A DNA stretch of 64,000 bases from Octopus vulgaris. Its lineage: Eukaryota. This document shows, one piece after another, positions 2,450 through 59,038 of the stretch; position 1 is the stretch's first letter; each line of letters begins with the position of its first letter. The position numbers were made by a program, and so were the translations under genes. The notes under the pieces are model-generated. The model did no database searches, was not told the DNA's origin, and was given only the letters and a program-made list of their open reading frames with translations. The stretch lies in contig OX597839.1 of the NCBI GenBank assembly GCA_951406725.2, forward strand, positions 11,966,001 through 12,030,000, given 5' to 3'.

Positions 2450-2970
2450 TGAATACAAAGGACGATATGACAATGTGGTAAGAATGATCCATTGGGAGTT
2501 CTGTGGACATTAGGCATAGAAAGATGAAAGACGTGGTTTGACCAAATCCCAGAGGGAGTTATTGAAAATGAAGATTGCAAAATCCTGTGGGATGTAATGA
2601 TTCCGTGTTACCATCAGATAAAACATTGGAAACCTGATATTGTTGGGTTAAATAGAAAAGAGAAAGTATATCTGATAATCGACGTAGCATGTCCTGGTGA
2701 CAACAGGATCGAATAGAAAGGAGAAGAGTGAACAACTATGATAAATTGAAGCGGGAAATACGCAGGTTGTGGGCAATGAAGAGAGTGAACGTGGTACCAA
2801 TGGTGATTGGTGCACTTGGAAGTATCAGCACTCAACTATCAACGTGGCTCAAAAAGATTGGTACAAATGTAATGATAGGACACCTACAAAAATCAGCATT
2901 GCTTGGAACTGCAAGAGATCTCCGCAGGGTTCTTGAAGCATGATCAGTAAACAAGTGTCACCTTAGTCTG
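2450..2970 (+). pseudogene. R4/Dong-like LINE C-terminal restriction-like endonuclease fragment (degenerate)
   Basis: Reads KILWDV..KPDIV..YLIIDVACPGD..YDKLKREIRRLWAMKRVNVVPMVIGALG..LQKSALLGTARDLRRVL, with stops and frameshifts. Includes ORF 2728-2943. Confidence 0.88.
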
Positions 2971-3517
2971 CAAGAAGAGAGAGGATGAGGCTAATAAACT
3001 GTCCACAGTCTGTCTACCCTATGTGAAAGGTCTCTCCAGAAAGATACAAAAGATATGCGGCCCATATGACATCAAGACAGTATTCAAGAGTAATACAACA
3101 CTTCGCAAATATCTCCTTCCAGTAAAACCACCAATAGAAGAGAAAATGACCAAAGACTGCGTGTACTCCATCCCATGCAGCTGTGGTTGGTTATACAAAG
3201 GCGAAACATGCCGCCCTCTCAAAATAAGGGTAGACGAACATCGCAAAGCTGTGACATGAGGAGATATTGATAAATCAGGTATAGCTAATCATGTAAGGAA
3301 AAATGGAGACCACCTTCCCCTGTGGGATGAAGTTAAAATAAGAGACAGAGAACACCACTGGAAAATACGAAAGCTAAATGAAACAGCACATATGCTAGGA
3401 CACAACAACCTCCTAAGCAGACCGAGTGCAGATATGAACAGCATATGAGAACCGGTATTAAGGAAGGATAGGAGAATATTAGATACATAAGCCCTAAAAT
3501 TCACACCATAACTGCTC

Positions 3518-3590
3518 GTGGGCATATGGCATAGTGGTTAAGCGCGCGGGCTACTAACCCCAAGATTCCGAGTTCGATTCTAAGCAGTGA
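3518..3590 (+). other. tRNA-like (Pol III A/B box) head inside the PLE 3' region
   Basis: A-box TGGCATAGTGG and B-box GAGTTCGATTC at tRNA-like spacing. Confidence 0.7.
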
Positions 3591-3660
3591 GCTGAACAAT
3601 AATAATAATAATAATAACATCGAAAAATACCTTAGGAATGAGATTCGAAATTTCCCCGAG

Positions 3661-3705
3661 TTACCTGAAGAAGGTTGGAGAGTATATCAGCCGAAACGTT
3701 GTGTT
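3661..3705 (+). ncRNA. Minimal type I hammerhead ribozyme motif (weak stem I)
   Basis: CTGAAGA-A-GGTTG...CAGCC-GAAA-CG-TT-GTGTT. Confidence 0.7.
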
Positions 3706-4318
3706 AACAACAAACAAGATGAGGACAAATATCCGTCAAACGTAAATAATGTAAATAATTCTTCATCTCTTAAATATAGAACAGTAAATTTTCCCTATTT
3801 CTATCTGTCTTTCTTCCCCTTTTTCTCAATCAAATGACTTTTGTAAATGAACAATCTGGTCTGCTTATTTTAATAGCCTACGAATGTATACAGTGCGTTT
3901 CTTTGCCCTAGGTCTCAGGAAGACACTCAGCAAGAAATGGAATCAGAATTGAAAGAAGATAATAATAAAAACAAACAATAATGTAGAGAGCCGAAAAATA
4001 CTGCAATGATTGTTTTCATCACGTTTTAACTATTTTGCTGATTCATCAGGATTAATGTTACCCACATGAACACAAGACCTAGCAAGACCAAGTTTGAGAA
4101 GAGGTACGGTTATTCCGTTCGGTCGATCCTAGTGTCTGATTGGTATTATAACTTATTGATTCGGAATCTGAACTCAAACCGTAAAGAGCAGCAAATATAT
4201 ACTGCCAGCCATTTTGTCCAACGCTCTACTGATTCTACTACTAACTGCAAAATACTGTATGCAGACACACACGCATGCGCGCGCATACACGCGAATACAC
4301 ACACATATACATATAAGC

Positions 4319-8622: not shown

Positions 8623-8800
8623 TATATATTAAGTATAGGAAAGAATGGAGCTGAACGAAGATTTACCAAAATTCCTTTATTTTATTTTCGACATATGTTT
8701 CGAAATCTCTTTGCAGATTTCGAAACATATGTCGAAAATAAAATAAAGGAATTTTGTTAAATCTTCGTTCAGCTCCATTCTTTCTTATACTTAATATATA
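8623..8800. repeat. Near-perfect hairpin, ~86-bp arms with a 6-nt loop
   Basis: ..TTCGACATATGTTTCGAAATCT-ctttgc-AGATTTCGAAACATATGTCGAA..; the arms extend out to TATATATTAAGTATA. Confidence 0.95.
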
Positions 8801-18618: not shown

Positions 18619-18689
<71 letters not shown>

Positions 18690-19872
18690 AAAAGCAATAA
18701 AGATTCAAGTTAATTTAAATGAATTTACTTGAATATGGTACCTAACTTAGATGCACCAAAAAAACTATACTGATTTAACAATACAGTAATGTGGGGTGAT
18801 TATAAGCGAGAATGAAGCAACAAGAATGGATAGGTTTTTAGTACAATCGTTTCATACAAGGACAGGTTTTATTAAAAGTTGCAAAAATTACAGCATATAA
18901 ACGTGTCCCGTACTCATCAGCTAAAATACATGTGAGTTCTCTAGACATCCTAGTGGTTGAGGCTATACTCATGAAGTAATGTAGATAATTAAGTAACATA
19001 AACAGATTTCAAAAGTTCATTAAAGTTCTTTAAAGATGATGTACAGTCTTATCACAGAATTTTAAAAAAGTTTTAATAGCATCACAGAGGAGGTGACCTA
19101 ATCCATAGTGCACATATGAATTTCCAGAGATATGATGAGGGATTACATACTCACAGAAGACAAATTTATCCATTGTTAATTACAACGAGGTGGGTTTCAA
19201 TTCCTGCTTATTAGCATTACAGAGAGGGTGAATTAATCCTTTGTATAGATGCACAATTTCCAATGGTGTAGATGTAAATTTCCAGAGAAATGAAGAGGAA
19301 TTTCATATTCACAGGCGATAAATTTATCAATGGTTGAACACAATGAGGTAGGTATGAATTCTTGTTATATGATTAGGCATTTGCCACATTAATCACATTA
19401 CTGCTATTTACAAGAGGCTGTAGCTATTTAACTTTTAAAGGCTGAAGGGCTTTCTAGAGCGGTATAGAATAGAAAAGGGAAGGGAATAGAAGAAAAGAGA
19501 GAAAATAAAGGAGGAGGGAGCAAAAAGGGGGGGCGAGGGGGACTAAAAGAGAAGAGAAAAGGAAAAAGAGAATAAGAAGAAGAAAAAGAAAAAAGAGAAA
19601 AGAGAAAGAAATAGGGAAGGAAGGGAAAAAAGAAAAAAGAAGAAAGAAGAAAGAAAAAGAAAAAAAAAGAGGGTTCTAGTTATACAGAAGAATTAGTAGA
19701 CGGCAAGTCTGGTTTTAATTTACAGGCATCTAGGAACTAGAGGAGAATATTATTCTTTGACCAGTAAAACAGCTATATGCTGTAATTTTTATATGCTGTA
19801 ATTTTTGCAACTTTTAATAAAACCTGTCCTTGTATGAAACGATTGTACTAAAAACCTATCCATTCTTGTTGC
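18690..19872 (-). mobile_element. PLE-like terminal region with a hammerhead and an inverted partial copy of its 3' end
   Basis: Bounded by (TA)n on both sides. 19788-19872 is the reverse complement of ~18817-18901. Confidence 0.7.
18836..18926 (-). ncRNA. Type I hammerhead ribozyme with canonical core and very long stem II
   Basis: TTTTAG-CTGATGA-GTACGGGACA...TGTCCTTGTAT-GAAA-CGATTG-TA-CTAAAA, with a perfect 6-bp stem I. Confidence 0.88.
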
Positions 19873-20007
<135 letters not shown>

Positions 20008-32699: not shown

Positions 32700-32898
32700 G
32701 AGTTAATCCAAACAGGAAAACACAACAACGCGAGGACGTGGAACAAGTATAGTATTATTGGACGCTCAGGAAAGAAGGAAAGAAGGAGGGTTTAACGTTT
32801 CGAGCGGAGCTCTTCGTCAGAAACATAGGAAAAGGAAAGATCCAAAGAAGGGAAGATGGAGGAAAAAAATCGCCAACGGTTCACACGCGGTCACATTT
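32700..32898 (-). mobile_element. Family H1 pLTR-like element with intact hammerhead at 32790-32824
   Basis: GTTT-CTGACGA-A-GAGC-TCC-GCTC-GAAA-CG-TT-AAAC. Confidence 0.9.
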
Positions 32899-49413: not shown

Positions 49414-51610
<2,197 letters not shown>

Positions 51611-55636: not shown

Positions 55637-56250
55637 CGAAAGCGATGTCGCTGCGAACGCTTGGCTGCCACAAGCCTATTATCCCTCGGCGAGCTGGCAG
55701 AAACGTTAGCACGCCGGGCGAAATGCTTAGCGGTATTTCGTCTGCGTTACGTTGTGAGTTCAAATTCCGCCGAGGTCGACTTTGCCTTTCATCCTTTCGG
55801 GGTCGATAAATTAAGTACCAGTTACGCACTGGGGTCGATGTAATCGACTTAATACCTATGTCTGTCCTTGTTTGTCCCCTCTGTGTTTAGCCCCTTGTGG
55901 GTAATAAAGAAATAGGTAACTTTTCTGACACCTCTCGACGGACGCATAGTACGACGCTGTTCGGAAAGGATCGATGGGCCACGCTTTCGCGGTCCGTTTT
56001 CGTACTGAAAATCGAGATCGAGCGAGCTTTTGCCCTTTTGCTCGACGTGTGGTTTCCGTCCACGCTGAGGTCGAGTTGTAACCGGTTGAAAGACGTACCA
56101 CCCCAGTCAAACTCCCCGACTGACACCGTTCTCGACTAAGGGTCGCTCATCAGGTGCGTCGGCGCCCGCAAGGCGTTCGACATGTATCGCATGCTTCGCC
56201 CCAGATAATGAAACACCGCTCGGCGCCGGCCCATTCACTTCTCCATCGTG
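55637..56250 (-). pseudogene. 28S rRNA fragment (peptidyl-transferase region), split by a SINE
   Basis: Minus strand reads GGGGAGTTTGACTGGGGTGGTAC, GAGGTGTCAGAAAAGTTACC | AGGGATAATAGGCTTGTGGCAGCCAAGCGTTC. Confidence 0.93.
55687..55914 (+). mobile_element. Young full-length SINE family A inserted in the 28S fragment
   Basis: GGCGAGCTGGCAGAAACGTTAGC..GAGTTCAAATTCC..GCCTTTCATCCTTTCGGGGTCGATAAA..TAAAGAAATA. Confidence 0.93.
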
Positions 56251-58912: not shown

Positions 58913-58920
58913 TGGGTGAC

Positions 58921-59038
58921 GCTTACAGCACCTAGGTTTCCCAAGCGGTCACCCATCTAAGTACTAACTAGGTTCGACGTTACTTAACTTCGGTGATCGG
59001 ACGAGAACCGGTGCTTTCGACGTGATATGGCCGTAACC
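58921..59038 (-). pseudogene. Solitary 5S rRNA copy (probable pseudogene)
   Basis: GGTTACGGCCATATCACGTCGAAAGCACCGGTTCTCGTCCGATCACCGAAGTTAAG..TAGTACTTAGATGGGTGACCGCTTGGGAAACC..GTGCTGTAAGC (~118 nt), with no oligo-T terminator. Confidence 0.92.

Follow-up and report, generated by a model that had tools for sequence, protein, structure and literature searches.

A predicted type I hammerhead ribozyme with a 60-nt stem II arm in a high-copy Octopus vulgaris repeat of Penelope-like insertion layout

The stretch of Octopus vulgaris DNA analysed here (the window; 64,000 nt, contig OX597839.1, positions 11,966,001 to 12,030,000 of assembly GCA_951406725.2) is microsatellite-rich eukaryotic DNA; all coordinates below are those of the window. 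Between two (TA)n runs lies an insertion of 1.18 kb, from approximately 18689 to 19872, made up of two unequal arms of opposite orientation (Table 1). The long arm carries a complete hammerhead motif, and the short arm is an inverted copy truncated within the stem II arm of that motif; a 16-nt slip duplication of the distal stem II arm, ending at the apical loop, precedes 19788. As the inverted copy is without the 5' half of the catalytic core, it cannot act as a ribozyme alone. Counted from the predicted cleavage site, the long arm ends after 153 nt and the inverted copy after 25 nt. No second sense copy of the tail or ribozyme was found in 18690–19873, so that the tandem units of a non-LTR retrozyme are absent from this interval, and no further copies of the family were found elsewhere in the 64-kb window.

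Table 1. Coordinates of the insertion, its flanks and the parts of the predicted ribozyme
Feature	Position in window	Strand	Basis or remark
(TA)n target flank, left	18624..18687	.	
Insertion, long arm: 5'-truncated body, ribozyme and 153-nt tail	18689..19771	-	High family depth shown only for 18690-19120
Twin-hairpin tail domain; candidate RT binding/priming signal	18703..18811	-	Fold, loose ends
Type I hammerhead (predicted), complete copy	18836..18926	-	Sequence, descriptor match, folding
Stem I, 6 Watson-Crick pairs	18926-18921 with 18841-18836	-	
Core 5' half, CUGAUGA	18914..18920	-	No variant among the 40 variants listed (8 others unlisted)
Stem II domain, exactly 60 nt	18854..18913	-	Sequence, folding; family variants scored
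Helix IIa	18913-18904/18864-18854	-	10 bp, one bulged U
Helix IIb	18902-18897/18872-18866	-	
Helix IIc	18892-18888/18884-18880	-	
GAAA, near-palindromic stem III and GUA site	18842..18853	-	
GAAA	18853-18850	-	
Stem III, 8 nt	18850-18843	-	
GUA	18844-18842	-	Predicted cut between 18842 and 18841
Imperfect tandem repeat, period 158 nt	19050..19400	-	107-nt core 78% identical; period not a multiple of three
Pyrimidine-rich low-complexity tract	19478..19667	-	Possible part of the family
Inverted 5'-truncated copy	19772..19872	+	19788-19872 100% identical to 18901-18817
(TA)n target flank, right	19874..19921	.	

An inverted 5'-truncated copy at the 5' end, combined with a tail at one end only, is the arrangement of EN+ Penelope-like element (PLE) insertions, and the two-armed layout drawn for these elements in Fig. 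2 of PMC8557442 is the same as that of the present insertion. The (TA)n target also agrees with Hydra and Naiad elements and with the microsatellite bias of Neptune, and other copies of the family likewise end in TA. For coding sequence, Pfam gave no match in any of the six frames of 18927–19773, and a PLE control was likewise without a match. One of the three sense frames was searched deeply, with no match among 1.84 billion proteins, and a 49-amino-acid piece had no match in the Atlas, where a control scored 0.97. The body is likely non-coding, which is not put more firmly because the Pfam control was also blank and the deep search covered one sense frame. Since no reverse transcriptase (RT) or endonuclease gene was found in 18927–19773, the link to PLEs comes from the layout; the PLE association made in the preliminary description is upheld on that footing, and PLE-type mobilisation of the repeat is likely.

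Several other features were observed in the window. At 2951–3790 on the plus strand is the 3' remnant of a Poseidon-like PLE (RT thumb/GIY-YIG-like; Atlas 0.97), which is interrupted by another repeat and ends in an ordinary short hammerhead at approximately 3662–3703 with a 21-nt stem II (3672–3692). A second short, minimal hammerhead with a 12-nt stem II domain lies at 32790–32825 on the minus strand and adjoins (TA)n, as does a near-perfect 178-nt palindrome at 8623–8800. A large inverted pair occupies 49416–51557 (arms 97–100% identical, palindromic microsatellite centre), in which CUGANGA was not found. An isolated 5S rRNA copy is present at 58920–59038, and a diverged large-subunit rRNA fragment at 55915–56148 on the minus strand.

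The minus strand from 18926 to 18836 is a type I hammerhead motif with an intact core, CUGANGA, GAAA and NUH all being present, and hence a predicted ribozyme. The 6-bp stem I, CTGATGA, 60-nt stem II domain, GAAA and GUA reported in the preliminary description were all recovered where it had placed them, on the minus strand. When the window was scanned with a relaxed hammerhead descriptor that allowed stem II to reach 120 nt, two sites were returned, this one and one short motif, and the same descriptor gave no match in 60 dinucleotide shuffles of the window; the anatomy can thus be taken as genuine. The pair closing stem II (10.1–11.1) is G·U in place of the usual G–C, and the extra base after A9 is absent. 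The 8-bp self-duplex of stem III is worth −5.8 kcal/mol, a short palindrome as in dimer-type PLE hammerheads. At 18921–18940 the 5' strand of stem I ends in UUUUAG after CUCAC and resembles a 3' splice acceptor; the Penelope element of Drosophila virilis has an intron whose end falls at helix I (PMC4209133). The stem I of a diverged relative described below predicts no AG at this place, and no joint is listed there among the contigs.

As had been anticipated, standard descriptors miss a hammerhead with such an arm. The published min-HHR pattern permits a stem II of 3–7 bp with a loop of 3–10 nt (Fig. S7 of PMC4209133), about 26 nt, which the 60-nt domain exceeds, and no Rfam hammerhead model matched 18690–19880 at E ≤ 10 (5 other matches were returned there). 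Nor was a hammerhead among the 150 of 446 Rfam matches listed for the window. Craig et al. (2021) looked for the core with a spacer of 7–17 nt and noted eight Naiad half-cores lying 35–50 nt apart (PMC8557442).

Within the stem II domain, three short helices are interrupted by one bulge and two internal loops and closed by a 3-nt apical loop. The isolated arm folds modestly better than shuffled sequences (z −1.7, p 0.06; in a second test z −2.0, equalled by 6 of 200 shuffles), and 9 of 2000 shuffles showed end-to-end pairing like that of the arm. The middle of the arm formed with a probability of 0.96–1.0 in all four contexts folded, unlike the rest of the hammerhead: stem I formed with p about 0.6 in the 91-mer and with p ≤ 0.01 in the monomer fold predicted for a longer native context, where the core-proximal pairs of stem II were also lost. 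When two copies were cofolded, the best predicted structure differed from a double hammerhead. Poor folding of the monomer agrees with the low activity that PLE hammerheads are reported to have (PMC4209133), but also with a dead motif. As pseudoknot partners for the arm loops, only A/U-rich complements of 7–9 nt were found elsewhere in the element, which were judged to be chance, and no tertiary partner for the arm was identified. A kink-turn was rejected, as the arm loops contain no tandem GA/AG on reading the sequence.

To place the locus within its family, public sequencing runs were used. At least half of the words of 18690–19480 were present in 20 of the 24 runs listed, from 9 studies, and contigs of four of the 24 were placed on 18690–19120 (3453 from the run X2, and 764, 870 and 26 from the others). 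In the three large runs, summed depth was of the order of 10^5–10^6, whereas many single records had a depth in the tens; this points to a family of thousands of copies, a rough figure since depth does not equal copy number. Depth over the arm compared well with that over its two flanks in these three runs (1.42 million against 1.26 and 1.14 million; 0.50 against 0.55 and 0.49 million; 0.67 against 0.73 and 0.53 million). No joint that skipped the arm occurred among the placed contigs, and none of the 11 indels listed fell within it; from the equal depth and the lack of joints and listed indels, the arm is a trait of the whole family. Among the 3453 placed X2 contigs, 2384 were at least 95% alike. 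No listed run is recorded as RNA; one contig identical to 18690–19010 came from a run only guessed to be RNA and was not counted as expression. At the predicted cut there was no contig end or joint among the 24 of 151 loose ends listed, although contigs cannot show RNA ends.

None of the 40 variants listed (8 others unlisted) fell in CUGAUGA, GAAA, GUA or stem I, and the arm was the most variable part of 18690–19120. In X2, 6 of the 14 visible variant places were in the 60-nt arm (p 0.008), with 3 of 17 places hidden; p would be 0.02 if all three hidden places lay outside the arm. Seven arm alleles reached at least 3% in a large run, of which three keep a pair through a one-sided change, three are at unpaired positions and one breaks a terminal pair. 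This proportion of pair-sparing alleles (6 of 7) gives p 0.03 unweighted and p 0.12, not significant, with transitions weighted 4:1, and inclusion of four alleles from one diverged contig of the run X1 gives 10 of 11 (p 0.002 unweighted, 0.02 weighted). For this scoring helix IIb was taken in the register of the preliminary description, picked after the variants had been seen; in the minimum-energy register the change at 18896 would break one more pair. No two-sided change in the arm was seen among the variants listed, and because pairing is kept only by one-sided changes, covariation is not shown. Positions in the apical loop and internal loops vary within the family, and the arm is likely conserved in shape rather than in sequence. 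At 18848 and 18890, subfamily changes strengthen pairing, the former (17%, 45% and 16% in the large runs) turning stem III into a perfect palindrome. A diverged relative, known from one contig with a loose end at 18831 and 30 of 255 letters shown, keeps GAAA, the palindromic stem III and GUA, has C at 11.1, retains the bulged U and differs in the 3' strand of stem I. A-to-I editing of the arm was considered and rejected: the three extra A>G changes are in a single X1 contig, which also has private changes not of the editing type, with no excess of A>G changes.

A pattern search for the motif gave no match in viral contigs and 35 loci in metagenomes, about the number expected by chance on a rough estimate; with that number, and a stem I of at least 5 bp in none of the 35, these loci do not represent homologues. 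At two GC-rich metagenome loci (L001, 447–519; L014, 1501–1573), both core halves flank a stable 61-nt hairpin (−25.5 kcal/mol); these are without a type I stem I and could be permuted long-arm hammerheads or chance.

Downstream of the cut, the tail (18811–18703) folds into two hairpins (z −4.0, 1 of 200 shuffles). One tail subfamily has a two-sided change at 18780/18771, from U–A to G–C, as judged by eye from loose ends against the fold, together with two one-sided changes in the inner hairpin. In the interval 18764–18787, the subfamily marked by 18780 makes up 6–9% of depth in the three large runs and 94% in X1; X1 is only guessed to be RNA, and this may be an expressed subfamily. Other copies end at 18801–18807 and continue into TA (19 contigs in X2 and one in X1), and there is an upward step in depth near 18810; with the long-arm end 153 nt past the cut, there are thus two end classes, which flank the tail hairpin domain.

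These ends can be compared with those of PAc, a Poseidon element of Anolis and the only PLE to have been reconstituted in vitro (PMC11167929). Its reverse transcription has two start sites within a stem-loop that follows the ribozyme, and the interval is termed the 'tail'; its ribozyme cuts only with its protein, and insertion does not require cleavage. RNA from ORF +20 to +172 suffices for PAc insertion; with stem II beginning at +1 and the cut falling at +26, PAc can do without most of stem II. Like the family here, PAc has two 3' ends downstream of the ribozyme, a stem-loop nearby and an AT-rich target; it differs in being autonomous, in its short stem II and in a tail of 30–40 bp against 128 nt between the two ends here. 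The analogy makes the tail hairpins a better candidate than the arm for recognition by the enzyme. The earlier suggestion that the arm is a docking site for the RT did not fare well: most of the RNA that PAc needs is downstream of stem II, no other part of 18690–19120 varies as much as the arm, and the copy ends flank the better-folding twin hairpin, which together make docking on the arm unlikely.

Among published hammerheads, those of Hydra-clade PLEs (Files S1 and S2 of PMC8557442) are also of type I with a self-complementary stem III (3–4 bp in theirs) and (TA)n targets. A missing extra base after A9 and a non-G–C pair at 10.1–11.1 both occur among them, and Penelope-13_HM and Penelope-17_HM also have G·U at this pair. 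Their elements end 35–115 nt past the cut in five consensus ends. They differ in a stem II domain of no more than 26 nt in all 26 metazoan entries, against 60 nt here, more than twice that length, and in an ORF that stops approximately 130–260 nt before the ribozyme (judged by eye from the ends); in the present repeat no ORF was found. Longer domains are present in PLE-X1_sMoe and PLE-X1_sTam (File S2), PLE type I motifs with stem II domains of about 54 and 48 nt by count; these differ in belonging to endonuclease-less, rDNA-targeting elements of spike-mosses and are listed as 'deviates from canonical structure'. With these precedents, the 60-nt-arm hammerhead is a length variant of known PLE-type hammerheads; of the long-arm class that had been proposed, the arm's being common to the family stands and its separateness as a class does not. 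Neither four short motifs of the window nor variants of them were matched in the supplement of PMC8557442 as far as available.

The minimal and variant PLE hammerheads of Cervera and de la Peña (2014; PMC4209133) share the palindromic stem III, dimer model and single dispersed motifs, and likewise include opposite-strand pairs 100–700 bp apart and a bulged helix II in D. virilis. They differ in a helix II of 3–8 bp with a loop of 3–10 nt, and usually have the extra base after A9 and G10.1–C11.1, both absent here. In viral motifs, a 'long helix II' denotes 6–8 bp. Animal non-LTR retrozymes (PMC7229834; bioRxiv 10.64898/2026.07.22.740005) resemble the repeat in being apparently non-coding, hammerhead-bearing, high in copy number and proposed parasites of PLEs, but they consist of tandem units of 170–400 nt (consensus up to 972 bp), whereas here a single complete ribozyme is preceded by at least 930 nt of non-repeating body. 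The repeat was not filed as an autonomous PLE, Hydra element or retrozyme, since neither the ORF nor the tandem unit that would define these was found. No description of an animal hammerhead with a 60-nt stem II was found in the accessible literature, although longer variants or looser descriptors may be in print elsewhere, and ribozymes are not mentioned in an Octopus vulgaris repeat annotation.

The hammerhead motif, a two-armed insertion flanked by (TA)n runs, an arm present across the family and the distribution of variants are established. We lean towards the account that this is a high-copy repeat, likely PLE-mobilised, with a predicted type I hammerhead that acts as a dimer or with the help of a protein; its stem II extension is probably tolerated, with pairing likely required but the sequence free. 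On this account, cleavage of the family RNA after GUA would take place in two copies paired through the palindromic stem III, or on refolding of the RNA by a protein. A PLE enzyme would bind the downstream twin hairpin and nick (TA)n DNA, and cDNA would start on either side of the twin-hairpin domain, about 25–41 and 153 nt past the cut, producing two unequal arm ends. The stem II arm would point away from the core; its tolerance is proposed to follow from a hammerhead type with no loop I–loop II contact to preserve. Long stem II regions are compatible with cleavage in hammerheads with aptamers engineered into stem II and in the satRPV hammerhead. A short conserved feature of the arm, such as the bulged U or helix IIa, could be functional after all.

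It is possible, though unlikely, that the arm is instead a working part of the ribozyme, its stable middle clamping the halves of the core, its bulge or internal loop docking on stem I as a substitute for the usual loop-loop contact (a replacement that the preliminary description had also suggested), or the whole gating cleavage until a dimer or protein forms. The near-certain pairing of the arm middle in every context folded, the absence of a length variant in the family and the bulged U of the diverged relative would all be accommodated, but related PLE hammerheads manage with a short stem II, two of them in this window (21 and 12 nt), the loop positions vary, and loop complements of at most 9 nt offer no tertiary partner beyond chance. 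A bolder form, which we think unlikely, would have long-armed type I hammerheads widespread and overlooked in (TA)n-targeting Penelope parasites, with the arm needed as a folding clamp or switch to hold the monomer inactive and make cleavage dimer- or enzyme-dependent, whole families having been missed by searches.

The arm as a docking site for the PLE RT or another protein strikes us as very improbable. A shape-reading protein would accept sequence change, the PAc ribozyme does depend on its protein for cutting (PMC11167929), and the inverted copy breaks inside the arm with its slip ending at the apical loop, which is one event only. Against this stand the variability of the arm, the dispensability of most of stem II in PAc and the position of the copy ends around tail hairpins that fold better (z −4.0 versus −2.0). 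Rather improbable, too, is a dead ribozyme spread as a passenger, the arm being a decaying inverted duplication from template switching and family uniformity the result of recent amplification. Such a history would agree with the G·U closing pair, the weak predicted monomer fold, the high likeness of the X2 contigs and the finding that cleavage is not needed for PAc insertion (PMC11167929), and decay also yields one-sided changes toward wobble pairs. It is harder to reconcile with an arm that varies while the core and stem I have no listed variant, with subfamily changes at 18848 and 18890 that better the pairing, and with a 3' core and palindrome kept in the diverged relative.

This repeat shows that a hammerhead can be present in a high-copy animal family and yet escape both the published PLE descriptor and Rfam. 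For this reason, counts of ribozyme-bearing elements may be too low, and claims that some elements lack them may be affected in turn. If the arm is dispensable, the motif is a minor length variant. The family offers a clean test of what PLE hammerheads require for cutting, and of which RNA structure, the arm or the tail hairpins, is read by the PLE enzyme.
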